Shown piece by piece: positions 3,694-43,129 of a DNA stretch of 64,000 nt. The DNA is from Amphiscolops sp. MND2022 (Eukaryota): positions 6,574,001-6,638,000 of the forward strand of contig OZ076409.1 of the NCBI GenBank assembly GCA_964187785.1. Reading direction: 5' to 3'. Position 1 is the stretch's first letter. Each line of letters begins with the position of its first letter. The notes beneath the pieces are model-generated. The model ran no database searches and was not told the DNA's origin. It saw only the letters and a list, made by a program, of their open reading frames with translations. The position numbers and the translations under genes are program-made.

Positions 3694-3713
3694 GTCAGTA
3701 TAACACCTATGCC

Positions 3714-6409: not shown

Positions 6410-6604
6410 CAGTGGATCCCGGATATAATCAACGTCAGGGGAACGACTATTGGTGTTTCTGATAATCGAACTTGATTCTGTGTTTTTGATAACCATTCCT
6501 ATCCTGGTTTCAAAAGGAATGAAATTGCCAATCGGGGCCAAGATACGCATTGACTATTAGCGGGTATTTCTTATAAGCGAGTTTCTTATATCCGGGATCC
6601 ACCG
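6410..6604. mobile_element. Tc1/mariner-pogo-like MITE
   Basis: TA-flanked, TIR cagtggatcccggatataa (1 mismatch); related element at 45353-45523. Confidence 0.75.
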
Positions 6605-6858
6605 TATTAGACTGTTCCTAGTGTTCACAGTTTACAAATAAAGAACTCTGCGAATTATTCTACGTCATATAACGAAACTAGTACTAACATATCATTGATG
6701 CATTTAAGGAGTCATTGTTGGTTCTCTGGGGCGAAGACATTAGAAGAACTGATGGGCTCATTCTTTGTCCCTTTTGTTTGTACTGTGTATTACTTCTGTA
6801 ATGACATACAAATGAATAAATGAGTTCTTCATTCGAGTTTGTTGTTGTGGTGTTGCAG

Positions 6859-7680: not shown

Positions 7681-7914
7681 GTATCACCTGACTCCGTTGT
7701 CTTACGAGACCCTGGACCATGCTTCTGGCTTCGCCTCGGAGCAGTGTCCAGAGGGCATAGTGGCCATCGCGTCCAACACTCTGCGGATCCTGGCTCTGGA
7801 GAAACTGGGCGCCGTGTTCAACCAGCAGGCCTCTCCTCTCAAGTACACCCCCCGCAAGTTCATCGTGCACCCTCAGTCGTCCAACATCTTCATGATCGAA
7901 GCAGACCACAACAG
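7681..7914 (+). CDS. SF3B3: SF3B3 exon D
   Basis: YHLTPLSYETLDHASGFASEQCPEGIVAI...EADHN(S); inferred donor is non-canonical GG (cag|ggatta). Confidence 0.9.
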
Positions 7915-10483
7915 GGATTATTAATACTTAGCTGGGGGTATAACAATATAACAAACAAGCCGGGAACGTCTAAAGTCGGCGCTATATCTAAGGCTCAAAA
8001 TTGTAAAAGGACTTCAAAGTGTCAAGTATTCTCTTTTACAGGACTCGAAAAACCCAAACGTTGGACCGAATTGGCGCACCGCCAAAGGGGACTCTTTGAG
8101 ATTTTTCGTCCATTCTGTCGCAAATCATCAAAAAAATGAATGGGGGCCCTTTTGGTGAGAAAAAATTGAAAAAAGTCTCACAAGGCCGGAAAAACTGAAA
8201 AGGGGGACCATTTGGGCTTTGTGAAACTCCAGTTGGTTGCAAAATAGGAAAAAAAATAAGAGGGACCATTGGGAGATTTTAAAAAAATCCGAAAAAAAAA
8301 TTTGATAGATTTTTGAACAATGTCATAGTGCCGAAAAATGTAAAAGGGGGACCCTTTGAGATTTTTTGACATCCATTGTGTTGCAAAATATTAAAAAAGT
8401 TGAAGGGGAGACCCTTTGGTGGAATCCAAAAAGGTTCAAAAAAGTCGCATAGTGCCGAAAAAAATCCGAGTGAAAAAACGAGGGGGGATCCTATGTTATC
8501 GATGTTCTGGACATCGATGTTTTTGTCGTGGACGAGGTTCTGGCGTTTCGAGTATGCTTTGGACGTCCGTAGTTCAAGTTGATGATGTTGAACAAAAAAG
8601 TGGACAGATCGCGTTGAACTGACGAAAAAAACTAGCCACTTTAAGAGTCAGGATTTTCTTCGAAAACGCCGACTAAAAAGGACCATGTGTACAATTCCCC
8701 CCTCGCCAAGCGACCGCAGGGGGGAAAATAAGACGCAAGGTTCAAATGCGATGTCGACATCGTTTGCGTTGTTCAAATTTTGGTCCAATAAAAAATTGAT
8801 GTCGACATAATCCTATCCATTACATTGACTGTCATTTAAAAGTTGCTCATTAGATTTTATCATAGAGAAATTTTACGTTGAAATAGGGGCCAATTTATGC
8901 AATTTTAGCTTGTTCCAAGCGTGAATTTCTGCTCTTTTGGACAATAATATCAAAAAATTAGGGTAATTTTTTTTGCCTGAAGTGTCAAAAGAGTTGTAGA
9001 GACAATCCTCTAACTTAGAGAATACTTGAAGTATTTACATTCATATAATGTTCTCTTATTAGTGAAATCTTTTTATTCGAGAACAAAATGTGCTTTTGTG
9101 TTGGGGGAAAATTCGCAAAAAGGTGTACCTGGTGAGAAATTGAACACATGGTCCCAAAAAAATACGACTCAGTAGTTTTTGTTTTGTTTTTTGGTTCGTT
9201 TTTTCCCCATTAAAATTTCGGATTTTCCTACTGTTAGAATTTCGTTTTTCAAGAATTTTTAAATTTCTAAAACCAAAGTTTTTCTGAAAAATGATTATGC
9301 TCACTTCCGCACTTTGTTTTTCTTGTCCAAGAGTGGCGATTGAAGCAAAAGTGTCGAATTTTGACTAGTTCAAAAACCATTTTCTCACCACTTTTTTTCA
9401 CTCAATTCCTTTGGTATTGGTCCCAAACAAAGGATAATGTTGCCTTAAGATTATCTTGAACAAAATCACTTTTGATTAAATTAAGTGGAGTAGATTTTTG
9501 TCATTTCGCTTTGTTATCAAGTAAATTGAAAAATTCGTTGACTTTTTATTTCAGCCTGCCTCATATTCAGTTCAAGGTTAATTCTATTTTAGAGATTCTC
9601 AGAGTTTAAAATCCTACAGTTTAATGCCTCCATTCCACCAACAAATTCTGGACTCATTCAAAATTCAAAATTGGGTTTTCAAGAAGTTTGACTAAAATTC
9701 AGTTACTCCTCGATAATTCTTGATGCCCAATAATGCTTCGAAGGTAATTCCATGTTAGTTCTATACCGTTTACCGGAAAAACTGAGCCTTCTGAAAAGAC
9801 AAGAAATGGGAAAAACGATATCAGCTCAAATGTCACCTCAAAATAATCAATCATTTACTGAGTTTCGGAAAAGGTTTCCAATCTGTGGCTGATAGTTTTT
9901 TAAACTCAGGTCTTCCTTTTCAATAAATAAAGCACTTTTACACTTTTAGCCCCTATTGTATCAACCAAGTTACGTTGTAACATTCGAAGGAATATGCGAT
10001 TTTGAATAATTTTCAAATTTGTGATGGAAGTTCTCAGATAAATAAATACTCAAGTAGGCGTATTGTAAACTTACGAAGCATAGACATGGTCATCATGTTT
10101 GATGGCATCCTTTCATTATTTTTAGTCGGCTTTTCCGATAGAAAAAGTGACTATAGCAATGACTTTTTAACGACCTGCGAACTGACAGATTTCGTATAAC
10201 ATTCGTATAAGTTATAGCTTAGTAACTTCTCATTGCCCCTTGGCCTATAGGTTAACTCGGGTTTCCGAAATCCGAGGTCTGAGAAGCAGCAGTACGTGGG
10301 TTCGAATCTCCCACTGTTTCCAATTGTGGAAAAGCTATTTTCGAGTTTTATGCGTATCCCTTCGTGTATTTTTGTCTCTGCAAATTTGATGAAAAATTTT
10401 CACAACAGTTACCTTTGCTTATTCAAAGAACTTGTTTTTTGGGCCGTTCCCGGTTTGTTTACCATTCGTTTTAATAATCCCCG
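7912..10483. mobile_element. hAT-like TIR-bounded unit coinciding with SF3B3 intron D-E (Introner-like)
   Basis: cagggattattaa ... ttaataatccccg (12/13 inverted match), followed by 8 nt and the cag acceptor. Confidence 0.65.
7954..8679. mobile_element. HINE family 1 copy
   Basis: aacaagccgggaacg..agtcggcgc ... acgccgactaaaaa. Confidence 0.7.
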
Positions 10484-10494
10484 AATGCCGACAG

Positions 10495-10811
10495 TTTCAC
10501 GACCCAATCCAAAAAGCAGAGGAAGCAGCAAATGGCCGAGGAAATGATCCAGTCAGCCGGAGAAAGCGAACGGGAACTGGCGTCGGAAGTTGCCGAGTCC
10601 TTCTTGCAGGAGAATTTGCCGGAAGACGTTTTCGGCTCTCCCAAGGCCGGACCCGGAATGTGGGCCAGTATTCTGAGGATTCTGAACCCCTTGAATGGAT
10701 CCACAGTGAAACACGTGGAGCTAGAACAGAATGAAGCTGCGTTTTCTATCGCGTTTGTCAAGTTCGCAAACCGACCCGGAGAACAATTTCTGCTTCTCGG
10801 CACAGCTAAAG
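10495..10811 (+). CDS. SF3B3: SF3B3 exon E
   Basis: FTTQSKKQRKQQMAEEMIQSAGE...PKAGPGMWAS...LEQNEAAFS...GTAK(G); gacag acceptor, GC donor (aag|gcagag). Confidence 0.92.
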
Positions 10812-11280
10812 GCAGAGTTGTTACGATTAAACATGAGGGTAGAATTAAAGCCGGTGGAAAATGCCGGTCGTACTCATAGCTGAGGCTTCATTGAAAAAAC
10901 TTCTATATGCGCTTTCAATCGAGGTCTACTGTGTTACTAGAGTGAATCAGTAACTTAGCAAACAGTTGCTCAGTTATTGAAAAAAAGCTTTTTTGAATTT
11001 TACTGTTTTTGCAAGTCTTCACTTTTTGCAGTTACTTTTTTGCCCGGAGCTGGAAAAAAACTATATGCACACAAATAACAACTTACCTCAGTTCGTTCAA
11101 TGTATTTTCCATGAAAAGAAAAAAATCATTGTTTTCCTGTGTGCTTGTGTTTCGTAATTTTTATTGACTCATTATTTTTGTTTCAAATGCATGTTATTTA
11201 TTTACTCTCCTAGAGGATTGGTGGGTCTCTTCTGATCACATGTAAAAAAACTTCAGATTTGTTTAATAGAAGGAAACGTT

Positions 11281-11870
11281 TTTCATTATTTCTGCTTTAG
11301 CAGGAATATTATTGAATTGAAATCTCAAAATTTCTACTTTTGTCAGTACAATTCTCCGTATGATACTGAATAATTCAGATATTTTGTTCGGCAGTGACTA
11401 TAAGCGTAAGATTAAAGTTCTCAAGCTGCCGACGACAATTCAATTCTCGTGCGATGGAACGAGCGAGTTGTAATTATGCATTCGTAAGCTGACGTCATTG
11501 AGATGAAGCGAGCGAATGTTTGTTATTGTGCTTTCGTTGCGCCGAGTTATTGAGATGAAGCGAATGAGTGTTAGTTGTACTTTCGCGGAGAGCTTCGCCT
11601 GCATTCAAATATATATTTGCTTTACTCCGAGATTTACTACTATTACTACTGAAAGACTGGATTGATTCTAGTCAGAAATTGATTCTAGAAAGAAATACTT
11701 GATGATATTTACATGTACAGATTTTTTAAACAACAGAGTTAAAGGCGGTATAAACTGGTACAGTGATTAATTGTGCGCTAAATAATGATTAAACAGGAAT
11801 GTATTGGTATTCAAGATATGATTCTATTATTAATGAAAGATTAAAGCAGAAATAGTAATGGGCCTATTTT
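11281..11870. mobile_element. HINE-like family 3 copy (diverged)
   Basis: atttctgctttagcaggaat ... ttaaagcagaaatag..ggcctatttt. Confidence 0.65.
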
Positions 11871-12149
11871 TTTAAAAAAAAACTTTTTAAAAATTGGCAC
11901 AGAACGGAAAGAAGACTGTTTTTTCAACTTTTTTTGAAAACATGAAACAAAATGGAGTGCTACTAAAACAGCCGAGAGGAAAGGTTTCCAGCAGAGCATA
12001 AATCTTAGAACTGACTTTGTTTGCTCGGTTGGTGCTTCTGTCAAAAAACAGGATTGTGGAAATGATTTTTTTGAAAATTTGACAATGTGGATAAGTTTTT
12101 TGAATATGGTTTTCATTTTGACAGAAAACGAGTACAATGATAAACTACT

Positions 12150-15100
12150 CACTGATAGCAATCTCCGTTCCCAGGGTGAACAGAGTTGTTTCTATTCAGC
12201 AATTCGTTGAGTACAATATTAGGATCTCTGTGTTGTTTTTTCCAGCACGTGTCACATTTTTTTTGTCATCGTAACCGAAATATTCTATTTCACTTTTTGA
12301 CACTCGCAGCCCCGCATTTGGGCCATATCTTGCAACAACTCATGGAACGTTCGCAGCTTGGTTCTATGAATAAAGTTAAAACTATGAGTGCATAAGTCAA
12401 AGCTGTTTTGTTTAACTTTGTTGGTGGCATAGTGTGTTGTATCTTTGCTATAATTTCAATGAACAGGAGAGAAAGTGGTCACTGTTTGTTGATTGTGTAA
12501 ACAACGTATATCGAAAGTTTGTAATCTCTGCCCCACTCAGGCATGTTTACCAAGGCTGAAGTTCATATGCCGTTTAAGGAGGTGAATCAACCATAACAAA
12601 AATCATTTTGCCGTTTTACAACCAGAACAATCAGTCCAAGGTGATTAAAAATGAAAGCTTCAAGCTACTTGACATTATTTTTTTGCTGGAATTGATCGAT
12701 GATCAAAACAAAGGATACGAGGGAAACACCACTCTACTTTCCAGAAACCAAAATCATTGTTTGAAGGTAATGAGTGCCAAGTTAACATTGCATAGCTAAC
12801 CTCATCAACTCTCTGGCACATTGGGCATTTGATTTCACCATGTATTTTTTCCCTTTCTTTTCAGCTAGAGGAGACAATTTTCATCAGATTTGGGTCCACA
12901 TAAACAATGTCCACAAGAGAGAATTCTTGAACTAATTCCAAAAGTTTTACTTTCATCAGTTTATACTCACTGATTGCTTTCTCCTTTTTTCTTCTGTGAT
13001 ATTTTTTCCAACAAATGTCACAGGACTCTTGGTTGTAATCATTGCAGAAATATTTTAATTCTTTATTGTTCGGCCATTTCTTCCAACAACTCATGGAACT
13101 TTCGCAGCTTGGTTCTACAAATAAAGTTAAAACTATGAGTGCATAAGTCAAAGCTGTTTTGTTTAACTTTGTTGGTGGCATAGTGTGTTGTATCTTTGCT
13201 ATAATTTCAATGAACAGGAGAGAAAGTGGTCACTGTTTGTTGATTGTGTAAACAACGTATATCGAAAGTTTGTAATCTCTGCCCCACTCAGGCATGTTTA
13301 CCAAGGCTGAAGTTCATATGCCGTTTAAGGAGGTGAATCAACCATAACAAAAATCATTTTGCCGTTTGACAACCAGAACAATCAGTCCAAGGTGATTAAA
13401 AATGAAAGCTTCAAGCTACTTGACATTATTTTTTTGCTGGAATTGATCGATGATCAAAACAAAGGATACGAGGGAAACACCACTCTACTTTCCAGAAACC
13501 AAAATCATTGTTTGAAGGTAATGAGTGCCAAGTTAACATTGCATAGCTAACCTCATCAACTCTCTGGCACATTGGGCATTTGATTTCACCATGTATTTTT
13601 TCCCTTTCTTTTCAGCTAGAGGAGACAATTTTCATCAGATTTGGGTCCACATAAACAATGTCCACAAGAGAGAATTCTTGAACTAGTTCCAAAAGTTTTA
13701 CTTTCATCAGTTTATACTCACTGATTGCTTTCTCCTTTTTTCTTCTGTGATATTTTTTCCAACAAATGTCACAGGACTCTTGGTTGTGATCATTGCAGAA
13801 ATATTTTAATTCTTTATTGTTCGGCCATTTCTTCCAACAACTCATGGAACTTTCGCAGCTTGGTTCTACAAATAAAGTTAAAACTATGAGTGCATAAGTC
13901 AAAGCTGTTTTGTTTAACTTTGTTGGTGGCATAGTGTGTTGTATCTTTGCTATAATTTCAATGAACAGGAGAGAAAGTGGTCACTGTTTGTTGATTGTGT
14001 AAACAACGTATATCGAAAGTTTGTAATCTCTGCCCCACTCAGGCATGTTTACCAAGGCTGAAGTTCATATGCCGTTTAAGGAGGTGAATCAACCATAACA
14101 AAAATCATTTTGCCGTTTTACAACCAGAACAATCAGTCCAAGGTGATTAAAAATGAAAGCTTCAAGCTACTTGACATTATTTTTTTGCTGGAATTGATCG
14201 ATGATCAAAACAAAGGATACGAGGGAAACACCACTCTACTTTCCAGAAACCAAAATCATTGTTTGAAGGTAATGAGTGCCAAGTTAACATTGCATAGCTA
14301 ACCTCATCAACTCTCTGGCACATTGGGCATTTGATTTCACCATGTATTTTTTCCCTTTCTTTTCAGCTAGAGGAGACAATTTTCATCAGATTTGGGTCCA
14401 CATAAACAATGTCCACAAGAGAGAATTCTTGAACTAGTTCCAAAAGTTTTACTTTCATCAGTTTATACTCACTGATTGCTTTCTCCTTTTTTCTTCTGTG
14501 ATATTTTTTCCAACAAATGTCACAGGACTCTTGGTTGTAATCATTGCAGAAATATTTTAATTCTTTATTGTTCGGCCATTTCTTCCAACAACTCATGGAA
14601 CTTTCGCAGCTTGGTTCTACAAATAAAGTTAAAACTATGAGTGCATAAGTCAAAGCTGTTTTGTTTAACTTTGTTGTTGGCATAGTGTGTTGTATCTTTG
14701 CTATAATTTCAATGAACAGGAGAGAAAGTGGTCACTGTTTGTTGATTGTGTAAACAACGTATATCGAAAGTTTGTAATCTCTGCCCCACTCAGGCATGTT
14801 AACCAAGGCTGAAGTTCATATACCGTTTAAGGAGGCGAATCAACCGTAACAACAATCATTTTGCCGTTTTACAACCAAAACAATCAGTCCAAGGTCATTA
14901 AAAATGAAAGCTTCAAGCTACTTGACATTATTTTCTTGCTGTAATTGATCGATGATCGAAACCAAAGGATACGAGGGAAACACCACTCTACTTTCGAGAA
15001 ACCAAAATCATTAATGTTTGAAGGTAATGAGTGCCAAGTTAACATTGCATAGCTAACCTCATCAACTCTCTGGCACATTGGGCATTTGATTTCACCATGT

Positions 15101-18100
15101 ATTTTTCCCTTTCTTTTCAGCTAGAGGAGACAATTTTCATCAGATTTGGGTCCACATAAACAATGTCCACAAGAGAGAATTCTTGAACTAATTCCAAAAG
15201 TTTTACTTTCATCAGTTTATACTCACTGATTGCTTTCTCCTTTTTTCTTCTGTGATATTTTTTCCAACAAATGTCACAGGACTCTTGGTTGTAATCATTG
15301 CAGAAATATTTTAATTCTTTATTGTTCGGCCATTTCTTCCAACAACTCATGGAACTTTCGCAGCTTGGTTCTACAAATAAAGTTAAAACTATGAGTGCAT
15401 AAGTCAAAGCTGTTTTGTTTAACTTTGTTGGTGGCATAGTGTGTTGTATCTTTGCTATAATTTCAATGAACAGGAGAGAAAGTGGTCACTGTTTGTTGAT
15501 TGTGTAAACAACGTATATCGAAAGTTTGTAATCTCTGCCCCACTCAGGCATGTTTACCAAGGCTGAAGTTCATATGCCGTTTAAGGAGGTGAATCAACCA
15601 TAACAAAAATCATTTTGCCGTTTTACAACCAGAACAATCAGTCCAAGGTGATTAAAAATGAAAGCTTCAAGCTACTTGACATTATTTTTTTGCTGGAATT
15701 GATCGATGATCAAAACAAAGGATACGAGGGAAACACCACTCTACTTTCCAGAAACCAAAATCATTGTTTGAAGGTAATGAGTGCCAAGTTAACATTGCAT
15801 AGCTAACCTCATCAACTCTCTGGCACATTGGGCATTTGATTTCACCATGTATTTTTTCCCTTTCTTTTCAGCTAGAGGAGACAATTTTCATCAGATTTGG
15901 GTCCACATAAACAATGTCCACAAGAGAGAATTCTTGAACTAATTCCAAAAGTTTTACTTTCATCAGTTTATACTCACTGATTGCTTTCTCCTTTTTTTCT
16001 TCTGTGATATTTTTTCCAACAAATGTCACAGGACTCTTGGTTGTAATCATTGCAGAAATATTTTAATTCTTTATTGTTCGGCCATTTCTTCCAACAACTC
16101 ATGGAACTTTCGCAGCTTGGTTCTACAAATAAAGTTAAAACTATGAGTGCATAAGTCAAAGCTGTTTTGTTTAACTTTGTTGGTGGCATAGTGTGTTGTA
16201 TCTTTGCTATAATTTCAATGAACAGGAGAGAAAGTGGTCACTGTTTGTTGATTGTGTAAACAACGTATATCGAAAGTTTGTAATCTCTGCCCCACTCAGG
16301 CATGTTTACCAAGGCTGAAGTTCATATGCCGTTTAAGGAGGCGAATCAACCATAACAAAAATCATTTTGCCGTTTTACAACCAGAACAATCAGTCCAAGG
16401 TGATTAAAAATGAAAGCTTCAAGCTACTTGACATTATTTTTTTGCTGGAATTGATCGATGATCAAAACAAAGGATACGAGGGAAACACCACTCTACTTTC
16501 CAGAAACCAAAATCATTGTTTGAAGGTAATGAGTGCCAAGTTAACATTGCATAGCTAACCTCATCAACTCTCTGGCACATTGGGCATTTGATTTCACCAT
16601 GTATTTTTTCCCTTTCTTTTCAGCTAGAGGAGACAATTTTCATCAGATTTGGGTCCACATAAACAATGTCCACAAGAGAGAATTCTTGAACTAATTCCAA
16701 AAGTTTTACTTTCATCAGTTTATACTCACTGATTGCTTTCTCCTTTTTTTCTTCTGTGATATTTTTTCCAACAAATGTCACAGGACTCTTGGTTGTAATC
16801 ATTGCAGAAATATTTTAATTCTTTATTGTTCGGCCATTTCTTCCAACAACTCATGGAACTTTCGCAGCTTGGTTCTACAAATAAAGTTAAAACTATGAGT
16901 GTATAAGTCAAAGCTGTTTTGTTCAACTTTGTTGGTGGCATAGTGTGTTGTATCTTTGCTATAATTTCAATGAACAGGAGAGAAAGTGGTCACTGTTTGT
17001 TGATTGTGTAAACAACGTATATCGAAAGTTTGTAATCTCTGCCCCACTCAGGCATGTTAACCAAGGCTGAAGTTCATATACCGTTTAAGGAGGCGAATCA
17101 ACCATAACAAAAATCATTTTGCCGTTTTACAACCAAAACAATCAGTCCAAGGTGATTAAAAATGAAAGCTTCAAGCTACTTGACATTATTTTCTTGCTGT
17201 AATTGATCGATGATCGAAACCAAAGGATACGAGGGAAACACCACTCTACTTTCGAGAAACCAAAATCATTAATGTTTGAAGGTAATGAGTGCCAAGTTAA
17301 CATTGCATAGCTAACCTCATCAACTCTCTGGCACATTGGGCATTTGATTTCACCAATTTTTGATTTCACCAAGGTATTTTTCCCTTTCTTTTCAGCTAGA
17401 GGAGACAATTTTCATCAGATTTGGGTCCACACAAACAATATCCACGAGAGAATTCTTGAACAAATTCAAAAAGTTTTACTTTCATCAGTTTATACTCACT
17501 GATAGTTTTCTCCGTTCCCAGGGTGAACAAAGTTGTTCCCACTTGGCAATTTCGATGAGTTCGATTTCATGATCTCTATGCTGATTTTTTTTCCAACACA
17601 TGTCACAGAACTCTTGATTGTCATCACACCAGAAGTATTTCAGCTCAATATTGTTTGGCCTAATCTTCCATACAACTCATGGAACTTTCGCCGCTTGGAT
17701 ACACTCAGCAACTTCGATTCGTTCGATTTTATGATCTCTGTGATGATTTTTCCAACAAATTTCACAGAACTCTTGGTTGTAATCATTGCAGAAATATTTT
17801 AGTTCACTATTGTTCGGCCATTTCTTCCAACAACTCATGGAACTTCGCAGCTTGGTTCTACAATTAAAGTTGAATGCATAAGTCAAAGCTGTTTTGTTTA
17901 ACTTTGTTGGTGGCTTTGTGTTTTGTATTTTTGCTATACTTTCAATGAACAGGAGAGAAAGTGGTCACTGTTTGTTGATTGTGTAAACAACGTATATCGA
18001 AAGTTTATGTAATCTCTGCCCCACTCAGGCATGTTAACCAAGGCTGAAGTTCATGTACCGTTTAAGGGGGCGAATCAACCATAACAAAAATCATTTTGCC

Positions 18101-21100
18101 GTTTTACAACCAAAACAATCAGTCCAAGGTGATTAAAAATGAAAGCTTCAAGCTACTTGGCTTTTTTCTTGCTGGAATTGATCGATGATCTAAACAAAGG
18201 ATACGAGGGAAACACCACTCTACTTTCCAGAAACCAAAATCATCAATGTTTGAAGGTAATGAGTGCTAAGTTATTATTGCATAGCTAACCTCATCAAGTC
18301 TCTGGCACATTGGGCATTTGATTTCACCAGGTATTTTTCCCTTTCTTTTCAGCTAGAGAACACAACTTTCATCAGATTTGGGTCCACATAAACAATGTCC
18401 ACAAGAGAGAATTTTCGAACAAATTCAAAAAGTTTTACTTTCATCAGTTTATACTCACTGATAGCTTTCTCCGTTCCCAGGGTGAACAAAGTTGTTCCCA
18501 CTTAGCAATTTCGATGAGTTCGATTTCATGATCTCTATGCTGATTTTTCCAACACGTGTCACAGAACTCTTGATTGTCATCACAGCAGAAGTATTTCAGC
18601 TCAATATTGTTTGGCCTAATCTTCCATACAACTCATGGAACTTTCGCCGCTTGGATACACTCAGCAACTTTGATTCGTTCGATTTTTTGATCCGTGATGA
18701 TTTTTCCAACAAATTTCACAGAACTCTTGGTTGTAATCATTGCAGAAATATTTTAGTTCACTATTGTTCGGCCATTTCTTCCAACAACTCATGGAACTTT
18801 CGCAGCTTGGTTCTACAAATAAAGTTAAAATTATGAGTGCATAAGTCAAAGCTGTTTTGCTTAACTTTGTTGGTGGCATAGTGTTTCGTATCTTTGCTAT
18901 ACTTTCAATGAACAGGAGAGAGTGGTCACCGTTCGTGGATTGTTTAAGCAACGTATATCGAAAGTTTATGTAATCTCTGCCCCACTCAGGCATGTTTACC
19001 CAGGCTGAAGTTCATATGCCGTTTAAGGAGGCGAATCAACCATAACAAAAATCATTTTGCCGTTTTACAACCAAAACAATCAGTCCAGGGTGATTAAAAA
19101 TGAATTCAAGCTACTTGGCATTATTTTCTTGCTGGAATTGATCGATGATCGAAACAAAGGATACGAGGGAAACACCACTCTACTTTCCAGAAAGCAAAAT
19201 CATCAATGTTTGAAGGTAATGAGTGCCAAGTTAACATTGCATAGCTAACCTCATCAAGTCTCTGGCACATTGGGCATTTGATTTCCCCAGGTATTTTTTC
19301 CCTTTCTTTTCAGCTGGAGGAGACAATTTTCATCAGATTTGGGTCCACATAAACAATTTCCACAAGAGAGAATTTTCGAACAAATTCAAAAAGTTTTACT
19401 TTCATCAGTTTATACTCACTGATATTTTTCTCCGTTCCCAAGATGAACAAAGTTGTTCCCACTTAGCAATTTCGATGAGTTCGCTTTCATGATCTCTATG
19501 CTGATTTTTCCAACACATGGCACAGAACTCTTGATTGTCATCACAGCAGAAGTATTTTAGCTCAATTTCGTTTGGCCATATCTTCCATACAACTCATGGA
19601 ACTTTCGCAGCTTGGATACACTCAGCAACTTCGATTCGTTCGATTTTATGATCTATCTCTGTGATAATTTTTCCAACAAATGTCACAGAACTTTTGGTTG
19701 TAATCATTGCAGAAATTTTTTAGTTCACTATTGTTCGGCCATTTCTTCCATACAACTCATGGAACTTTCGCAGCTTGGTTCTACAAATATAGTTAAAATT
19801 ATGAGTGCATAAGTCAAAGCTGCTTTGCTTAACTTTGTTGGTGGCATAGTGTTTCGTATCTTTGCTATACTTTCAATGAACGGGAGAGAGTGGTCACCGT
19901 TTGTTGATTGTTTAAACAACGTATATCGAAAGTTTATGTAATCTCTGCCCCACTCAGGCATGTTTACCAAGGCTGAAGTTCATATGCCGTTTGAGGCGAA
20001 TCAACTATAACAAAAATCATTTTGCTGTTTTACAACCAAAACAATCAGTCCAGGGTGATTAAAAATGAAAGCTTCAAGCTACTTGGCATTATTTTCTTGC
20101 TGGAATTGATCGATGATCGAAACAAAGGATACGAGGGAAACACCACTCTATTTTCCAGAAAGCAAAATCATCAATGTTTGAAGGTAATGAGTGCCAAGTT
20201 AACATTGCATAGCTAACCTCATCAAGTCTCTGGCACATTAGGCATTTGATTTCACCAGGTATTTTCTCCCTTTCTTTTCAGCTGGAGGAGACAATTTCCA
20301 TCAGATTTGGGTCCACATAAACAATTTCCACAAGAGAGAATTTTCGAACAAATTCAAAAAGTTTTACTTTCATCAGTTTATACTCACTGATATTTTTCTC
20401 CGTTCCCAGGGTGAACAAAGTAGTTCCCACTTAGCAATTTCGATGAGTTCGATTTCATGATCTCTATGCTGATTTTTCCAACACATGTCACAGAACTCTT
20501 GATTGCCATCACAGCAGAAGTATTTTAGCTCAATTTCGTTTGGCCATATCTTCCATACAACTCATGGAACTTTCGCAGCATGGATACACTCAGCAACTTC
20601 GATTCGTTCGATTTTATGATCTCTGTGATGATTTTTCCAACACATGTCACAGAACTCTTGATTGTCATCAAAACAGAAGTATTTCAGCTCAATATTGTTT
20701 TGCCTAATCTTCCATACAACTCATGGAACTTTCACAGCTTGGATACACTCAGCAACTTCGATTCGTTCGATTTTATGATCTATCTCTGTGATGATTTTTC
20801 CAACAAATGTCACAGAACTCTTGGTTGTAATCATTGCAGAAATATTTTAGTTCACTATTCTTCGGCCATTTCTTCCAACAACTCATGGAACTTTCGCAGC
20901 TTGGTTCTACAAATAAAGTTAAAATGTGAGTGCATAAGTCAAAGCTGTTTTGCTTAACTTTGTTGGTGGCATAGTGTTTTGTATCTTGGCTATACTTTCA
21001 ATGAACAGGAGAGAGTGGTCACTGTTTGTTGATTGTGTAAATAACGTATATCGAAAGTTTATGTAATCTCTGCCCCACTCAGGCATGTTTACCAAGGCTG

Positions 21101-21800
21101 AAGTTCATATGCCGTTTAAGGAGGTGAATCAACCATAACAAAAATCATTTTGCCGTTTTACAACCAAAACAATCAGTCCAATGTGATTGAAAATGAAAGC
21201 TTCAAGAAACTTGACATTATTTTCTTGCTGGCATTGATCGATGATCAAAACAAAGGATACGAGGGAAACACCACTCTACTTTCCAGAAACCAAAATCATC
21301 AATGTTTGAAGGTAATGACTGCCAAGTTAACATTGCATAGCTAACCTCATGAACTCTCTGGCACATTGGGCATTTGATTTCACCAGGTGTTTTTTCCCTT
21401 TCTTTTCAGCTGGAGGAGACAACTTTCATCAGATTTAGGTCCACACAAACAATGTCCACAAGGGAGAATTCTTGAACAAATTTAAAAAGTTTCACTTTCG
21501 TCAGTTTATAATCACTGATAGCATTCTCAGTTCCCAGGGTGAACACATTTGCTTCCACTTAGCAATTTCGAAGAATTTGATTCTATGATCTCTGTGCTGG
21601 TTTTTCCAACGAATGTCACAGAACTCTTGATTGTCATCATAGCAGAAGTATTTTAGCTCACTATTGAGACGCCTGCAGAGACGCGTTTTGGCCATTTCTT
21701 CCAGCATCTACTCATATCCTTAAGATGTAACTTGCCCAGCTTGGATCTACGAATAAAACTAAAACTATGAATGCATAAATCAAAGTTGTTTAATTTGTAG
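12150..21800 (-). repeat. Tandem array of about 11-12 units (about 751-754 bp proximally, about 960-1130 bp distally) derived from a decayed coding region
   Basis: Near-identical ORFs recur at 12608, 13359, 14110, 15615, 16367, 19057, 20022 and 21150; one further copy at ~23460-24200. Confidence 0.95.
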
Positions 21801-22649
21801 GTGGTACACTTTATTCACTTTTTGTTCCTATGTTTTCATTAGAGAATAGGGAAAATGGAGACTATTTGGCAATTGTGTAAAAATCGTAAATTGAAAATTC
21901 GTGTCTGCTCTACTCCACACTGGCAAGTCATGTTTGATTGCCGGTGAAGAGGTGGCCTAACAATAAAAAAATCGTTTTCTACACAGTTGAAAATTCGTGT
22001 ATCCTCTACCCCACACAGGCAAGTTATGTTTGATTGCCGTTGAAGAGGTGGCATAACGATAACAAAAAATCGTTTTCTACACTCAGTTGAATAGCTATGA
22101 CAAAAAAATGTTGCACGTAAATTACTGTACGAAAAGACGTCAAAGTAAATACTGATCGAAACGTTTCTGATCGCTGCATTGACGTGACCTCAAGAGAAAA
22201 GACAAGATAGACTGATAAGTGTTCAATTTCAGTTTTAAGCGTGCTGAAGGAGCAAGTGAGATTAGTAAACACATTTCAGCAATATAAACTGCAGTGGTAG
22301 ACGTTAAGATTGAGAACTAGGAAAAGAAACAGTGACACATCAATAACTTCTTTCAGAGGCACATTATTTTACTGATATTTTGTTGAACAGTTTGTGAACC
22401 ACTGCAGACTGTAGGTAACAATAAATTACATTTTGATGTGTTTTTGGTACCTTCTTCGTATTGTTATTTGTAAGTAACAATGAGTGAAACTAACCAGTTG
22501 AAAGAACGGAAAACGCTTAGATCATGAGAAGCACCAGGAGAGCAATTGAAATCAAAAAATGATGAAAACAGCAGTAAAAATGGCAACTTGGCGGTTGGGT
22601 GATCCGATTAACATTGGCCGTTTCAAGTGATTTTGACCTTAACAGTTAC

Positions 22650-24752
22650 CCTTAACTAGTAGACTGATGAAACAGCCTTTTGCATTGGGAATAGGGATGT
22701 GGACTATGCGCGGGTTGTTCAATTGGCACAGCCTTGGGGAATCTCAGTGCCACTACAGCGTTTGGCAGAGGTTGGATAATTGATTCTGTAGAAATGACAT
22801 GATATTCGTGCACTTCGACGAAACTTTCGTTCTCCAATTTTGACGGCTTGAACCATCCGATTACTCGAAATCCTTTACGGCAGTTTGACGTACTTGACAC
22901 AGAAGGGTTCTGAATCCCATCCACAAATGCTCCATCAGTTCTAAACTCAACCAAATTGAACGCTGCTTCGTTTTGTGGCCTCACACTCACAATAATGTTG
23001 TGGTTCACAGAGAGTGTTGTGGTTCACAGTAATATTTTTGGCGAACTTCACTGAAACGAAAGACTTCTGGTGAGAAGTTCTTAAGAAAGTTGAGGACACT
23101 GAACCAAAGCTCGCAGATCCCTTTCCTTCAATCCACTCTTCAACAAACACACAACGTTTCTTTAACTGTTTGTCCATCACAGAAATTTCCGCTGCACAAG
23201 TAAACAGTAGAAATGATGTTTTTTAAAGTAGATATGATGTATTTTAATTGCCGTTCATCAGTAACAAAGTGGAAACTTTTATTATCGGTTTCGTTTTCGA
23301 TGCCGAACGCTTGCATTTCGTTGAACGATAAATTCATTTGAGAATTCGGTACTGGGATAAGTGGTTCAGTAGTAGATATCAAAAGGTTTTGGGAGTCAAT
23401 CATGGTCTCTTTAATTCGGAGTTCAATTAGTTCCACTATTTTTCCCGGATAAGTTTCGGGGTGATATCTTCATATGCCGTTTAAGGAGGCGAATCAACCA
23501 TAACAAAAAATCATTTTGCCGTGTTACAACCAAAACAATCAGTCCAAGGTGATTAAAAATGAAAGCTTCAAGAAACCTGACATTATCTTGCTGGAATTGA
23601 TCGATGATCAAAACAAAGGATACGAGGGAAACACCATTCTACTTTCCAGAAACCAAAATCGTCAATGTTTGAAGGTAATGAGCGCCAGGTTAACATTGCA
23701 TAGCTAACCTCATGAACTCTCGGGCACATTGGGCATTTGATTTCACCAGGTATTTTTCCTTCTTTTCAGCTAGAGAATAAAATTTCTTAGTTTTAGGGTC
23801 CACACAAACAATGTCCACAAGGGAGAATTCTTGAGAACAAAATTTTAAAAGTTTCACTTTCATCAGTTTTTACTCACTGATAGCATTCTCAGTTCCCAAG
23901 GTTAACACAGTTGCTCCCACTTAGCAATTTCGAAGTTCGAATTTATCATCTCTGTGCTGGTTTTTCCAACAATTGTCACAGAATTCTTGATTGTCATCAT
24001 AGCAGAAGTATTTTAGCTCACTATTGAGACGCCTGCAGAGACGCATTTCGGCCGTATCTTCCAACATCTACTCGTATCCTTAAGATGTAACTTGCCCAGC
24101 TTGGATCTACGAAAAAACTAAAAATTTGAATGCCTAAATCAAAGCTGTTTAATTTGTAGGTGGTACATATTACTCGCTTTTTGTTCCTATATTTTCATTA
24201 GTGAGTAGGGAAAATGGAGACTATTTGGCAATTGTGTAAAAATCGTAAATTGAAACTTCGTGTATCCTCTACCCCACACAGGCAAGTTATGTTTGATTGC
24301 CGTTGAAGAGGTGGCATAACGATAACAAAAAATCGTTTTCTACACACAGTTGAAAATTCGTGTATCCTCTACCCCACACAGGCAAGTTATGTTACTACGG
24401 TTCAGTAGTAGATATCAGGTTTTGGGAGTCAATCATGGTCTCTTTAATTCGGGGTTCCATTAGTTCCACTATTTTTCCCGGATAAGTTTCGGGGTGATAT
24501 CTTGTTACGATCCTACTCTTTCTCGCTAGAGGTAATGAGCGCCACTACCTTGTTGCTTCTTGGGTCTCCAAAAAGAAAGAACCGGTCGTCGTTTATTTGG
24601 TGGAGCTTGTTTTTAGACAGCATACTCTGACGACCGGACGTTGCTTGTTTGAACTTCAGTGGCTCAACTGCGTGTTTCCCATGTGAATTTACTAAAAACA
24701 ACCTTTTATCTTCGCAGTCGGATGCAAAATCGGAGTTTATTTTTAAATTCAT
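22650..24752 (-). pseudogene. Decayed Cys-rich ORF of a mobile element; likely source of the tandem array
   Basis: Chain of frameshifted minus-strand ORF fragments (24752, 23611, 23436, 23180, 23008) that includes one array unit. Confidence 0.4.
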
Positions 24753-25208
24753 CTGCCAAGGTCTCTAGCAGAAACAGGATTGAGGGAGCTTGCGAATGCG
24801 GTGTTCTTTTTAGGTGAGAATCTATTTTTGTTCGGGTTAGTTCCTAAACACAGAAATGTTGGAAAAAGTAATAACAGAAAAGAAAAATATTTTCTTGTAA
24901 AATAATAATTTGACACCTCTAGAAGAATACAAAAGTGTGGCGTTGTAACAAAAAGAGGAGAGATTTGATATTGTCAAAGAAGGGAGTGAGGTTTGAGGTG
25001 ACATGGAGATACGAAAAACGAATCACAGATAAAAAAAGTCGCAATCTTTGTTGAAGGGAATATCGAAAAATTACTGTAATCTCCGCTGATGTTGGAACTA
25101 AATAACTTTTGAAGTAGAGTTCGTTTCGTTAATTTCCGGCGACAATTATAGTTAATATTTAGGGGGAAATGGAGAGGTATGTGTTGTGGAAATGATGGAT
25201 GATTATCT

Positions 25209-25595
25209 AACAAGACGCCCGCTAAGCACCGGGATATTTTCCTCCCTTTTCGCCTTCATCACTTGAGCCATAGCTATTTTGGGAGAAGAATAGGATCTAA
25301 ATGATAAGATCTAAAATTTATTGATTTTAGATCTTATTCCCTTTAGATCTTAATCCCATTTTTACTTTAGATCTTTTTCCATCAGATTTTATACTCGTCC
25401 TGAAATTTTAGATGTTGTTCGCTTTGGATCTTATTTCCTTTTTTGACTTTAGTTCTTATTCCTCCCTCCTACTAAAATAGTCCCTCCTACGGTGGTGAGT
25501 CAAGTGATGGAGCGTGGAGATTTGGCAGAATTTGGAAAAAAACGCAACACAGATGATGAGTTTCCTCCCCAATGAAAATGTGGGTCGGAAAATAA
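25209..25595. mobile_element. HINE-like family 2 copy
   Basis: aacaagacgcccgctaagcaccggg ... gggtcggaaaataa, with internal agatct microrepeats. Confidence 0.6.
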
Positions 25596-25999
25596 TAAAA
25601 CAAGTTAGATTATTAGCCAATCTGCAAAATGCATCAGTAAATGATGCAGCAAACCTTCCGCAGGTTTATTAGCCCGCACTGTGTCCAAAAAGGCAAGTGT
25701 AAACAAGTACAGCAAAAAACATGGAAGCCAGGAATTTTGTTTAATTCGTAAATTCAATGTGTAGGGATCACAACATATATTTATTTTGATATTTTCAATT
25801 ATTTGTTTCAAGTTTTTGCAAAACTTTTCCTGCCCACTTTTAATAGTAGAGCTAGGGTTCACATCTGACATTGTATCGGAATGGATGCAGACCACTTTTT
25901 TAGTAGAGCCATAAACATATGAGGTACAGTCCACTTTCATAGAGCCAGAAACATGTAACTTTGGTTTTTGAACGCAATGGACGAACAGATCAAGTACTT

Positions 26000-28336
26000 G
26001 CTGCGGGTTTGCCTGCCATTTTTGAACATTGAAGTTTCTAAACAGCTCATAGTGAATAAAATGTTCCGCTCTTTCACGTTTATTGACTTCGGATATGTCA
26101 CTGAAATCGGTTACGAAGCAAAGGAGGCCCCATGGTCTTATGAGGTTGATTGGGTAAACAGGAACTGTTTACAGGGTTGAGCTCGCAAAGACGTCGACGT
26201 AAGTCAGATGTTTGACCGACGTAAATTGACAATGCATCTTTGGTACCAACCAAAAAGTAGGCAAAACCAGCTTCTGATGTAATTCTATTTTCCGAGGTCG
26301 AAAAGGAGAAACTTTGGCTAAGTCTGAAAGTCAGCTTGATTAGCAGATGTTCGCGCTGGCCTTCCCATGAATTCATCTCACTGTTTGAGCAAGTAATTTT
26401 TCAATTGGAGCTAACGTTGCTGTTTCCTCGCCGGAAAAAAGTTATATTACCTGAATTCTGAACTCGACTTACTAATAAAGTTGTTCCCTTTCCCGGGGAC
26501 AATATTCTGTCCGAAAAAAAATCAATTTTGTGGCGATTTTCCCAATAGTTTCCCCAGTAGCTTTGCGTATGGTCATTTCCATAAAATTTTTCGGCGGGAA
26601 TTAGGTCCGTCTGAGTAAAGAGCCTGTATAATTATGAACGAAACCTGTTTGCTGGTGCAAAATCACGCTAAACCACCCATTTTCAACCAACATGTTGAAC
26701 TTCATTAGTTTTTTTTCGTTGACAGACTGTTTGAAAACACATATTTGACCCTGTGATACCTTCAAAGGTCGAACGTTCATGGTTATCCTCAGCAGTGCAT
26801 TTTCATTGCAGTAGAGAAGTTCAGGTTCAAAACATTGATGGTTGAGTGCTCTCTTTATTGCTAGAGGGGCAGTGTTCCAGTTACTCGGGCAGTTCATTTT
26901 CACCTCATCGATGCTCTTTAGCTCCCTAACGACCTGACCCGATGAAACCCCACGGATTTGAGCATGTATGGCTTTCAACTCAGCAGGTTAGTTGTCCGAG
27001 TCTCAAAATTTACATTTTTCCGCAAACCTTTCCAAAATTTCTTCGTTCGTTTGCCGATTTACCAGGAACGGATAACATCTTGAGAAACTGCCTACCTATA
27101 AAGTCTGCCATTCTAACCCATTTCCTTCTAACGAAAAGATCTCTACACTTGTAATTATGATTGGAGATGTCCATAATAAACGACCTTGCGGTGGTAATTG
27201 TTTCTGATCTCCGGTGCCAAATATCAGAACGCCTTCGAAAGGCACATAAGTGTCTCGTTTTTTTGAGGATGTGGTCTTTTGTAGCAAACTCTTCCGCAGA
27301 TACCATACCAATCTCTTCAAAATACAAAATCGATCATTTTCATTATTACTCGTTTCAGAAGGTCGTTTTTCAATTTCTGTGACCCTTGCTGCACAATGCA
27401 GTCCACGTTCAGTGTTTTTGAAACTGGTGAGCAAAAATTGTCATGAACATGCATTCCGGAAAACTGCACACCTCTTTCACTGCTCAAAGAAATAAATATC
27501 ACATTTAACCTCTGACACAAAGCGTACAAAGGAGTATTTTTGATCAAAAACGTTTTTCAGAACCGGGCATCCCTACTACTACTAAATGATGTTTGAAAAA
27601 AAAGCGGAACTTTTGTACTCGTCAATTGTTTTCATAAGCCTCTTAACCGTAGATTGCTGGTCGTTGAAAACAACGTTTTGCGATTTAAGACGATTGTATT
27701 GCAAAGGGCAATACAAGTTGCAATCAATGATGAACTGGATGTCAGGCTTACCTGTATCCTGAACTAAGTCATGAATTTGCGAAGCAACTGCGAAGAGTTT
27801 TTCCATAACAGGTCTCAAAAGTTCACCTGTGTATTCTTCCTGCAAAGCATTATAAACGATAGTTGGCGTTTCGTTATTTGTGTTTTCATCGAGTGATGTC
27901 CGGAACGCCACATTTGCACCAATCTGACGGTCTTGAGAAAAATGCGATCCGGGACATATATGACTCCTTTAAGGATAAACGTTTTCAGAAACCGACTATC
28001 TCACGTTCTATGATCGTCTCAGCGTCGTAACAAGACCAGCTGTTTGAAATGCTTTTATAATTGTACCCCGTCTTCATATAAATCGAATTCTGTTTCGTAT
28101 TTACCAAATTGAAGTAAAAACTTGTTAGGAAATAGGGCCATGTCGGGGAATTACATTTGGAAACACAACGACCACAGGTTTCGATTGATCTTCACGACTA
28201 TCGACAAGCCTGCTGATGTCGTGATTGTTAAGTATGTCTAAATAATTGGACGCGAAAAATCTATACTGCTGGCTTTGATTCGAACCACCCAGAAATAAAA
28301 TTTTGAAATGATACCACAAGGGCTTGTTTTTTTGCA
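26000..28336 (-). pseudogene. Frameshifted PIF1-family helicase with C-terminal GIY-YIG nuclease (Helitron/Helentron-like remnant)
   Basis: PIF1-like motifs EEIGMVS, PFEGVLIFGTGDQKQLPP, ITMNV..SQGQ and MTIRKATGET, followed by FAYFL...IYVGQTSDLRRRL (GIY-YIG); many frameshifts. Confidence 0.75.
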
Positions 28337-28367
28337 AATCGTAACAACTCTGAACCTAATCGTCAAG

Positions 28368-28615
28368 GTCTGAAACTGAACCCCCCATCGATCACGGTGG
28401 GCTATGTGTACGCGTACCGGGTGCCGGACTCGGGAGACAGCTTCGAGTTCATCCACAGGACTGAGATGGAGGATGTGGCTCTGGCGGTGTGCGAGTTCAA
28501 GGGGAGGGTGTTGATCGGGGTGGGCAAGTGGCTGCGACTGTACGACATGGGACGGAAGAAGTTGCTGAAGAAGTGCGAGAACAAACATCTCACTAACAAG
28601 ATCATCACCATCAAG
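28368..28615 (+). CDS. SF3B3: SF3B3 exon F
   Basis: GLKLNPPSITVGYVYAY...GRVLIGVGKWLRLYDMGRKKLLKKCENKHLTNKIITIK; tcaag acceptor, gttgtt donor. Confidence 0.92.
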
Positions 28616-29558
28616 GTTGTTGAATGAATAGAACAAAAAAGAAAGAATAAAACAAGAAAGAACATGAATGAAACAAGGAAAACAAGCCGGGAACGGCCAA
28701 AGTTGGCGCTATATCGAAGGCTCAAAATTGTAAAAGGGGGACCATTTGGGCTTTGTGAAACTCCAGTTAGTTGCAAAAGATGAAAAAAATTAAAGGGGGA
28801 CCCTTGGGAGATTTTTAAAAATTTCCGAAAAAAATTTAAAATGAGATTTTTGAAGTGTCACAGTGCCGAAAAATGTAAAAGGGGGCCTTTGGGATTTTTC
28901 AACATCCATTCTCGGGCAAAATTGAAGGTGGGACCCTTTGGTGCAGTCCAAAAATTTTCGAAAAAAGTCTCATAGTGCCGAAAAAAAATCCAAGTTAAAA
29001 ACACCAAGATAATAAAAGTTGGATCCTGAGTATGTTTTCGAGGTTTTGGACGTTGGTTTTGTTTTGGACGAGGTTCTGACGTTTCCAGTATGTTTTGGAC
29101 ATCCGTAGTTCAAGTTGAACAAATGAACGAAAAGTGGACTTTACGCGTATAAAAAAACTACCCGCTGTAAGAGTCGGGCACTTTTCTTCAAAAGCGCCGA
29201 CTAAAAAACACTGTTTGTTCAGACACTTCTTTCCAGTTGTTTATGGTCTAGTTTCTGACTGTTCAATTTGTTTGGTACTTTTTGTTTACAAACCAGAACG
29301 CCTCGTGTGAAAGATGATATCTGGAAAATTTCAATGAAGTGAATGAATTCCATGCTTTTTATTCCTTTGTCAAATTTTTGTACAATAAAATATTTGGCAA
29401 CAAACGAAAACCGTTGTGCATAACACATTGTTTTCCACGGTAGTTTTCCCAAGAGGAAAAAAGCATTAAAATAATTTTAAAAAAAACAGTATATTCCGTT
29501 CAAAAACCTTTTAAAAGCATTTTTCGTGAAACAACAAACTGTCTAATTAACAACCTTG
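28612..29558. mobile_element. hAT-like Introner forming SF3B3 intron F-G
   Basis: TIR caaggttgtt/aacaaccttg; perfect 8-bp TSD atcaccat at 28604-28611 and 29559-29566. Confidence 0.85.
28681..29208. mobile_element. HINE family 1 copy (nested)
   Basis: aacaagccgggaacggcc hairpin ... gcgccgactaaaaaa. Confidence 0.7.
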
Positions 29559-29570
29559 ATCACCATGCAG

Positions 29571-40943: not shown

Positions 40944-41026
40944 GTTAGTCACTCCCTCCCCACACACATTCATCCATCACCGTCTGACGATTACCCCAGT
41001 CAAATCCCCCTTAAACTAATTTATCG

Positions 41027-41609: not shown

Positions 41610-43129
41610 CAACGTATTTCATTCCGTGGCATGTGATGTAAATTTGTATGCTTTTGGAACTTTCCAGCCAACTTGGGATTTCGTAGTTTGAGCATCAGCG
41701 AATTGACTTTGTCTAGAATTGAGTTTCACGGTTTTTGAAACTCTCTGACGGCCAAATTGAATCGATGGGAACCGCACCCGATAAGTGGTAGGTTACATTT
41801 GTGGGCAAGTGCCTTGTTGGTAGATACATTGTCGCCTATCAAGGCAACGACATTGTCAATGGTTTTACTGTAAACAGTCAGCACCCAAATCAAATACTCC
41901 ATGTGTTCATTTCCCCGTAGTCGGTTTCGGAAAAAATAGGAGAAAATGCCATTAGAACTTTGTCATACCCAGAAGGTTGATTCTTGTTGGGAAATGTGAC
42001 GAATACCCCAACAAAATGTGTGGACACCTTCGATCAACTGTCGAAAATGAGTGTGATTTTATGCGGCAACAACTTAGCGATCTTTGTTTCAACTTGTTTT
42101 GTGAGCAAGGACATGTATTTTTGTAAGGTTTCCGTTGATATGGGATCGAGTTTGATGTATTCTCGGATGAGTGGGTCCTCAACAAAATCAAAAGGTCGCA
42201 ACCTTCGCACACCATTCGGATCCAACCATAAATATTGCGAAACAGATTTGGTTCTCATTTTTTCCTTGGAACTCGTGGCTTCGGGATGTTGCGTATTGAT
42301 ATGATTTAACAAATTGCTCCATCCTGTGTTCTTCTGCTCAACGGTTTTGCTTCATTTGCATTCACATGTCCCACTGTCAGAGTTGGCTGAAAAAAGTCAT
42401 GGCTTGTTTAATACATGTTTTAAACAGTGTTTAAAACACATGTATTATTTCAATGTATTTTTTCAAATGTATTTTTTCAAAAAAACTGACTTGTCGTTCT
42501 TTAATCCTTACATGTCACTGGTGCTATGATATGCGGTTTATGTTTATCAACTGGCTAAAGTAGCAAGTTTTATTTGCATTTCAGATAGATTTGTAAACAT
42601 GAGCGGGGGAGCGAGAGACAATACAGGTCGTAAAAGGGATGCCATATGGAGCGAATTCACACTGATAGCCCCAAATAGTCAGACTGATTTATAACGATAT
42701 GTTTTATCATCAATGATTTGTAATCATTTTGTTTTTTGTTTTTGGAAAAATACAATTTTGAAAAAATACATGTTTTAAACGTTTAAAACGTTTTAAACGT
42801 TTTTTTTCAAAAGTTTTGTATAAAACACCAACCCTGCCCACTGTCGTTGTTTTCTTCGCTAAAATACTGCATGCAAATAGTCTTGGGTACAAGTTGGCGG
42901 ATAGCATCGCTTTTGGACATCGTGAAGGAAAACACGTAACAGCTGCAAGCAGTTAGTGGCCAAACACTCTGATTAAAACAAATAAAACTCAAGTACTCGT
43001 TGCGGAATCAGCTGCCAAAACGGTCAACACAATTATTTGCAATTAATTTCCATCAGCAATGAATTATTTGATAATTGGTGAAACCGGAAATGAATTAATT
43101 TAATTGCAATTAAATTTTCGGAACCCCTG
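41522..43129 (-). mobile_element. Truncated, frameshifted hAT transposon (transposase pseudogene plus one end)
   Basis: Minus-strand motifs ITLIFDS, VALIGDNVSTN, PLIGCGSHRFNLAV and NEIRW; terminus caggggttccgaaaa at 43129. Confidence 0.8.
42378..42836. mobile_element. hAT MITE nested in the hAT transposase gene
   Basis: TIR cagagttgg/ccaaccctg; perfect 8-bp TSD cccactgt (42370-42377, 42837-42844). Confidence 0.85.

Follow-up and report, generated by a model that had tools for sequence, protein, structure and literature searches.

The SF3B3 locus and its 17,556-nt intron

The window considered here, a stretch of 64,000 nucleotides from the acoel Amphiscolops sp. MND2022 (contig OZ076409.1, positions 6,574,001 to 6,638,000 of the forward strand), carries the core splicing gene SF3B3 on its forward strand, and within that gene a 17,556-nt intron (the 17.5-kb intron) whose likely origin from a hAT-type DNA transposon is the subject of this analysis. 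SF3B3 was mapped to 17 exons with one junction left unresolved, and the genome holds a single SF3B3 3' part. The exon upstream of the intron (10495..10811) encodes acoel residues 795–901 and ends ...GTAK G, while the exon downstream (28368..28615) opens with GLKLNPP..., both being identified by protein homology. Between them lies a predicted phase-1 GC–AG intron (10812..28367), whose junction was placed by protein colinearity. Human residues K911 and L913 are joined across it with one split codon, and removal of the eight introns in the window leaves an open SF3B3 frame with ungapped 98.4% identity to protein P0071 over 495 amino acids. Five slides of the borders yield the same mRNA, and spliceosomal ends are obtained for GC–AG at 10812-28367 alone. 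A U12-type intron was rejected, as the intron's start (GCAGAGTT) does not fit the U12-type 5' consensus RTATCCTT; an Rfam search of positions 10000-29000 gave no match.

The working donor might instead be a GT further in, at 10839..10840 or at 10854. Both sites are stop-free and in frame with the acceptor, and AAG|GCAGAG, the GC donor, matches the common donors of this genome poorly. Use of either GT would render the 5' arm of the terminal repeat exonic, add 9 (RVVTIKHEG) or 14 residues to SF3B3, and put the repeat under coding constraint on one side. However, acoel and other homologues are all colinear here without an insertion, a K to N difference falls within the nine extra codons in the read-through of another contig (P0072 versus P0073), and in a like-built G|C intron at SF3B3 amino acid 127 an in-frame stop precedes any GT, so that the GC donor is forced there. 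A GT donor is thus regarded as unlikely.

The original prediction described a perfect 16-bp inverted repeat at both intron ends, and this is confirmed. The 5' arm (CAGAGTTGTTACGATT, 10813..10828, forward strand) begins at intron position +2, its first C being the C of the GC donor, and the 3' arm (28337..28352, reverse strand) is complementary to it at 16 of 16 positions and ends 15 nt before the acceptor, whose AG occupies 28366-28367. The repeat starts with CAG along its full 16/16 match, which fits the short hAT-type repeats that start with CA or TA. Could it be a chance match, or an internal piece of some common repeat? The 16-mer has three exact copies in the 1.07-Gb (1,067-Mb) genome, two of them the intron arms, against none for a reversed control, and the third (on C3) lies in non-coding DNA that has nothing else in common with either intron end. 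The search for further copies that had been proposed with the original prediction therefore yields a single exact copy beyond the arms, in unrelated surroundings. A site with two mismatches at 12181 is part of a tandem-array unit. The first 45 and last ~185 bases of the intron have no other match in the genome, so that neither arm belongs to a repeat family, and the best terminal repeat among 3000 shuffled pairs of intron ends scored 11, compared with 16 here. These end searches and shuffles rule out chance or a common repeat for practical purposes, and placement inside a common repeat, which had been named as fatal to the prediction, was checked and does not hold. Sites of CANNGTTGTTACGATT numbered 10 further, against 2 for controls.

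Outside the repeat are the probable remains of a duplicated target. The putative 5' copy of an 8-bp target (GCTAAAGG, 10805..10812, forward strand, as are the next three features) contributes its last G as intron position +1, in the same register as an intron of the chaperonin gene CCT5b for which the empty site is known. The putative 3' copy (CGTCAAGG, 28361..28368) is equal to it at 5 of 8 positions, and at 2 of the 5 that are not fixed by the splice site. The 15-nt spacer that follows the 3' arm (AACCTAATCGTCAAG, 28353..28367) exceeds by 8 nt the length predicted by an 8-bp duplication, and furnishes an AAG acceptor with no pyrimidine tract. Within it lies CTAAT (28356..28360), with a candidate branch-point A at −9. 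The branch-point-like motif that had been noted in the extra 8 nt is thus present, and its suggested role gains some support from the distribution of CTRAY, which lies within 30 nt of the intron end in 5 of 6 lengthened spacers, as against 25 of 221 canonical introns. In three of those five, the CT stems from the repeat's own end. The pattern [GT]T[CG]AAG fits 8 of 9 AAG acceptors of repeat-bounded introns and 4 of 9 canonical AAG acceptors, which suggests that acceptors were changed or filtered.

The interior was expected to consist mainly of other elements, and this part of the original prediction fares less well: about 63% is internally duplicated (an array plus one unit), and some 7% recurs at other places in the 1.57 Mb compared. 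The array (12146..22030) comprises units of ~750-1000 bp that are up to 98% alike, with one more unit at 23469-24393. Ahead of it on the forward strand are a common dispersed repeat (10859..11167), 78-81% identical to 39 scored copies and unrelated to the terminal repeat, and a second dispersed repeat (11277..11871), which matches further copies in the window at 78-92% identity. Near the 3' end is a broken relic of a PIF1-type helicase (25608..28217, reverse strand), presumably Helitron-like, with stops and frame changes; its fragments have no Pfam match of their own, and it is similar to a relic on C7 with a match to PF05970.

Origin of the intron

The history that we favour, at a probability of roughly 0.65, is that a hAT-type transposon landed in an exon of SF3B3, its insertion duplicating the 8-bp target GCTAAAGG. 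The last G of the target and the first C of the element would have formed the GC donor, and the AAG in the second target copy would have become the acceptor, such that splicing, predicted as GC–AG, restores the protein exactly. Tandem amplification and nested insertions would then have enlarged the intron to 17.5 kb. The second target copy, in the acceptor region, would have changed faster than neutral copies and gained the 8 nt with the branch-point-like CTAAT, while the perfect repeat would mostly be a well-preserved relic. On the same reading the process would be recurrent in this lineage and involve several hAT-type families, with Ac-like CAGGGATG ends giving rise to GG donors. Insertion with a GC donor and a second-copy acceptor, as originally proposed, is well supported by a site that is empty in relatives (according to protein calls), by sister introns of the same build, by intact duplications and by an empty site in a paralogue.

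The close relatives of the window's SF3B3 group with proteins labelled as Symsagittifera roscoffensis and Convolutriloba macropyga, with 88.9% identity to P0075. Proteins P0071 and P0001 from a close sister, P0002 and P0078 (matches to S. roscoffensis) and P0079 (a match to C. macropyga) are each single open reading frames (ORFs) from about amino acid 717 to the end. The ENA protein calls are evidently unspliced ORFs, because P0072 and P0073 run from the upstream exon into the repeat (GTAKGRVVTI...) and P0080, P0081 and P0082 enter other introns. Unspliced single ORFs that cross the site would therefore lack the 17.5-kb intron and its four neighbours, and we infer from these protein calls that it is missing in three relatives. 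The window's species is far richer in introns than these relatives, and most of its introns look canonical (CCT4, L078-L079; dynein D11, L199-L200). CCT4, with seven introns in this species, is a single ORF in both named species and in a sister that is 96% identical, and P0477 spans three dynein D11 introns (L199-L200).

Further introns with transposon ends were found among 322 mapped junctions in 24 genes. Seventeen (~5%) are repeat-bounded, 16 beyond the 17.5-kb intron: 5 of 15 junctions in SF3B3, 3 of 25 in chaperonins and 9 of 282 in dyneins (7 among the 238 confident ones). Of the 282 dynein junctions, 44 were not confident and were set aside before counting, although two of them were still scored as repeat-bounded and one of these was re-placed by eye; two nested calls and six introns below 100 nt were set aside too. 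For the chaperonins, two CCT7 junctions were unresolved, and CCT1, CCT3, CCT6 and HSP60 had no usable reference. The distance from 3' repeat to acceptor is that predicted by an 8-bp duplication in 10 of the 17, longer in six and shorter in one. The dynein set alone has a small excess of terminal repeats (a score of at least 9 in 4 of 230, with 1.1 expected). Mapped dynein introns are 93% GT–AG, and the 213 canonical GT introns among them, examined in seven registers, carry no residual repeat or duplication signal; they cannot therefore be ascribed to transposons.

The clearest parallel is in CCT5, which is duplicated (L047, L049, L053; 98.4% amino acid identity, four-fold distance 0.39). CCT5a is intronless, and CCT5b contains a transposon intron, GATAAAG|G CAAGGTGGCCAG...CTGGCCACCCTG GACAAAG|GT, with the same G|C...AAG|G build as the 17.5-kb intron. 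Its duplication is retained at 7 of 8 positions, and the empty site in CCT5a (GACAAAGG) equals the intronic copy. Empty sites in paralogues are available for two dynein cases as well; the D11/D12 paralogue distance was tried as a clock and is saturated (~1.3), so it bounds nothing. All seven GG-donor introns start (C/A)AG|GGAT with a matching 3' end, reminiscent of the Ac-like CAGGGAT. One adjoins the upstream exon, where an element with CAGGGATTATTA ends (11/12; 7912..10483, forward strand) forms the GG–AG intron 7915-10494 and the target copy is matched at 3 of 8 positions. On the other side, a copy of a miniature inverted-repeat transposable element (MITE) that has CAAGGTTGTT ends and is flanked by a perfect 8-bp duplication, ATCACCAT (28612..29558, forward strand), forms intron 28616-29570. 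Its family has 39 other scored copies at 79-86% identity, and 7 of 9 copies examined have both ends and 8-bp duplications. The last four exon bases before this intron come from the element, and their replacement (28604-28615, 29559-29570) gives the protein ITIKT in place of the sister's ITIQT. Near the 3' end of this intron is CTAAT, where most family copies read TATAAT. The CCT4 and CCT8 introns share one element family; no similar introns of the family of the 17.5-kb element were found in the genome. Taken together, these cases suggest that introns of this acoel have repeatedly arisen from transposons.

Two further introns deserve separate mention. A second very long GG-donor intron, of 18,073 nt (L196-L198, C6:66064214-66082286), has a junction that is not confident, an Ac-like repeat AGGGATGATAAAA perfect over 13 nt, and CTAAC in its spacer. 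At a dynein D11 intron (L199:7111), comparison of P0476 with P0473 shows that another contig shares the GG-donor repeat (reading GWL) and is eight residues shorter just inside it, which suggests an indel variant beside an unchanged repeat.

An alternative history begins with an ancestral intron that was lost in the relatives and into which a transposon inserted at +2, deleting most of the old sequence. Introns are scarce in the relatives, where canonical ones are missing as well; this would accord with loss. Against this, the sequence left outside the element amounts to 15 nt with no pyrimidine tract, the duplication spacing is exact in 10 of 17 such introns, and paralogues provide empty sites for CCT5b and the two dynein cases. 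Loss would also be needed in three lineages, or early loss plus retention. We consider this history very improbable.

Several observations weigh against origin by insertion into an exon. Since the relatives are also without canonical-looking introns, including all seven of CCT4, absence alone is no proof of gain. The duplication at the 17,556-nt intron is matched at only 5 of 8 positions and displaced by 8 nt. A genome search with both element ends found no end-to-end copy, and nine ORF fragments of the intron gave no Pfam match and no hAT transposase, although the missing transposase and autonomous partner are what would be expected of an old non-autonomous copy. The spacers contain 30% T, compared with 55% in canonical introns, which weakens a simple optimisation of the pyrimidine tract. 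Finally, no single neutral age fits both the 16/16 repeat and the 2/5 match at free target positions. In the absence of selection, a 16/16 repeat has a probability of at least 0.05 at up to 0.1 substitutions per site, and of at most 0.003 at 0.2 or more. This leaves two readings, a fast-changing target copy or a conserved repeat, between which the data do not decide.

Elements that do not form introns provide a neutral comparison. Pairs of hAT-type ends with a duplication of at least 6/8 number 39 (one being intron 28616-29570), against 3 for control motifs. A lone relic outside introns (L112) has a near-identical terminal repeat and has kept 7/8 of its duplication. It has the terminal repeat alone in common with the intron's element, and 19 loci related to its interior are without that repeat; like the intron's element, it has no end-to-end relatives. 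Within SF3B3 intron 3694-6858 lies a 1,460-bp element (3714-5173) whose CAGGGATGAGAA ends are perfect over 12 nt and whose duplication is matched at 6/8; it is an Ac-like copy that forms no intron. Outside SF3B3, a hAT-type MITE (42378..42836, forward strand) has ends CAGAGTTGG and CAGGGTTGG and a perfect 8-bp duplication CCCACTGT. It had been thought to carry the same terminus as the 17.5-kb intron; the two share only the first eight letters (CAGAGTTG), and the MITE is of a different family. This MITE carries a reading-frame start MSGGARDNTGRKRDAIWSEF (42599-42690), which we take to resemble the start of a hAT BED finger, and it sits in another such relic (42037-42351, reverse strand) that has no Pfam match.

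The terminal repeat and splicing

The original prediction went further and proposed that pairing of the intron ends is maintained to help splicing, which is not established by the present data. In such a scheme the transposon origin is the same and selection has kept the arms, whose pairing would place a weak GC donor beside an AAG acceptor that lacks a pyrimidine tract, despite the 17.5 kb between them; CTAAT would have been added below the stem, in the unpaired spacer. There is some reason to entertain it. Over the 17 introns, repeats are matched at 169 of 204 positions and free target positions at 59 of 113, and in the GG class, which was picked by donor alone, the figures are 67/84 and 24/56 (Fisher p 1e-5). 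Of 12 intron-forming copies whose repeats match at 10/12 or better, only 4 keep a duplication of at least 6/8 (p ~0.014 on a rough background), whereas among neutral copies with good repeats 38 have duplications of at least 6/8, with little excess below. All three decayed-target elements that were searched lack an end-to-end relative. The duplex is calculated at −22.7 kcal/mol, with competing sites for each arm at −13.6 or weaker in a sliding scan; such a stem is expected of any intact terminal repeat. In addition, repeat scores are 12/12 and 11/12 in the longest two introns (17.6 and 18.1 kb), and the CTRAY motifs lie in lengthened spacers.

Other observations do not favour maintained pairing. 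Mismatches in the repeats over the 17 introns, a small sample, comprise 6 G-U, 6 A-C and 12 transversions, so that G-U pairs are no more frequent than A-C. Repeat identity rises with intron length at rho 0.48 (p 0.05) when the 17.5-kb intron is included and at 0.38 (p 0.14) without it, and that intron was chosen for its perfect repeat. U1 and U6 must pair at donor positions that the stem would mask, namely +2 to +17, or −3 to +8 in the GG class. Neutral copies likewise keep their repeats at about 11/12, and L112 retained its duplication despite having no end-to-end relatives. Faster change near the acceptor is also an explanation of the asymmetry between repeat and target. Arms kept by selection are therefore held as a tentative reading, with the odds against it, and the repeat is treated here as mostly a relic.

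A broader proposal is more doubtful again. hAT transposons could be a standing source of introns in the acoel lineage whose repeats were domesticated as a splicing device, the stem joining the ends of long GC and GG introns that have no pyrimidine tract, the spacer supplying a branch point, and a diversified U1 family widening the choice of donors. The genome has 21 U1 genes above the Rfam cut-off (L266-L285; C3, C7, C8, C12, C13), and the 5' ends vary among the 20 that were read: ACTTACCTG, ACTTACCTT (6, which would pair with AAG|GT), ACTAACCTG (3, which would pair with GTTAG), ACTTACTTG, TTCTTACCTG and TTTAAACCTG (2). Donor position +3 is T in 28% of mapped introns; the base facing donor +2 is changed in none of the 20 U1 genes.

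Elsewhere in the window, exons of a BAR-domain gene lie downstream of SF3B3 (40767-41132 and 44442-44759; PF03114, E 0.0008, below cut-off). Long ORFs of 267, 468, 216, 304 and 458 amino acids at 51262-55014 and 59871-62656 are likely to derive from mobile elements; of these five, only that of 216 amino acids has a Pfam match (BRCT_2). Tandem arrays occupy 57499-60054.

Comparison with known systems

How animals gain new introns has long been asked, and few cases allow element, splice sites and empty site to be read together. This acoel genome offers many such introns of varied ages in conserved genes, with intron-free sister species and paralogues as controls. With repeats kept and target copies changed, one can test directly whether transposon ends turn into splicing elements. 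No report of such introns in acoels was found in the literature searched, on which subscription papers could also bear. In the portions available, two acoelomorph genome papers give intron counts and sizes only, acoel names are absent from 13 of the 14 supplements of PMC12130899, and Hofstenia appears in the supplement of PMC9860276 only within a list of surveyed genomes.

The closest parallel is with introners. As far as the accessible text of PMC9860276, PMC12130899 and PMC11282704 describes them (with Huff 2016 as cited therein), a terminal-repeat element spans the intron and leaves protein length unchanged, splice sites are drawn from element and target duplication, and GC and GA donors occur, all of which is like the situation here. 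The element makes up the 17.5-kb intron end to end, from +2 to −16, and the sequence places a G|C donor and an AAG acceptor as in splice-site recruitment, the register being proven for CCT5b by its empty site. Reported introner families, in those same portions, have medians of 30-654 nt and are defined by similar copies; a genome search found no such copies of the 17.5-kb element. The acoel case differs from introners as presented there in size, age and mix of families: this intron is 17.5 kb long, its target copy is remodelled and it has no end-to-end copy, while many families contribute few introns each (~5% of junctions) and GG donors come from Ac-like ends.

Lineage-specific introns with terminal repeats and duplications are also known from Fritillaria borealis, from dinoflagellates (non-canonical) and from euglenids (nonconventional, with ends that pair), according to the part of PMC11282704 consulted. 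Unlike these as described there, the new acoel introns keep G at +1 and a final AG. Judged by features of the euglenid type, a stable stem is possible at the 17.5-kb intron, no bias toward G-U or compensatory changes is seen, and the GC–AG borders fall within the spliceosomal rule.

In maize, Ds can be spliced out of exons. The available text of PMC3260210 describes Ac ends that read C/TAGGGATGAAA with 8-bp duplications, and the short terminal repeats starting CA or TA of maize Ac/Ds and hAT MITEs are like those seen here, their 8-bp duplication having its counterpart in intron 28616-29570 (8/8), CCT5b and L112 (7/8 each). The GG-donor sister introns bear the Ac-type CAGGGATG end of that description (PMC3260210), and in an Ac-type end CAG|GGATG, which is already donor-like, a concrete source of GG donors can be recognised. 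Unlike maize Ac/Ds as covered there, neither transposase nor subterminal homology was found, and the insertions are fixed, frame-exact introns in conserved genes.

The unusual donors themselves have a counterpart in an animal. GG and GA donors preceded by an exonic AG occur in the copepod Eurytemora; unlike that case, every GG donor seen in this acoel could be traced to the end of a transposon.

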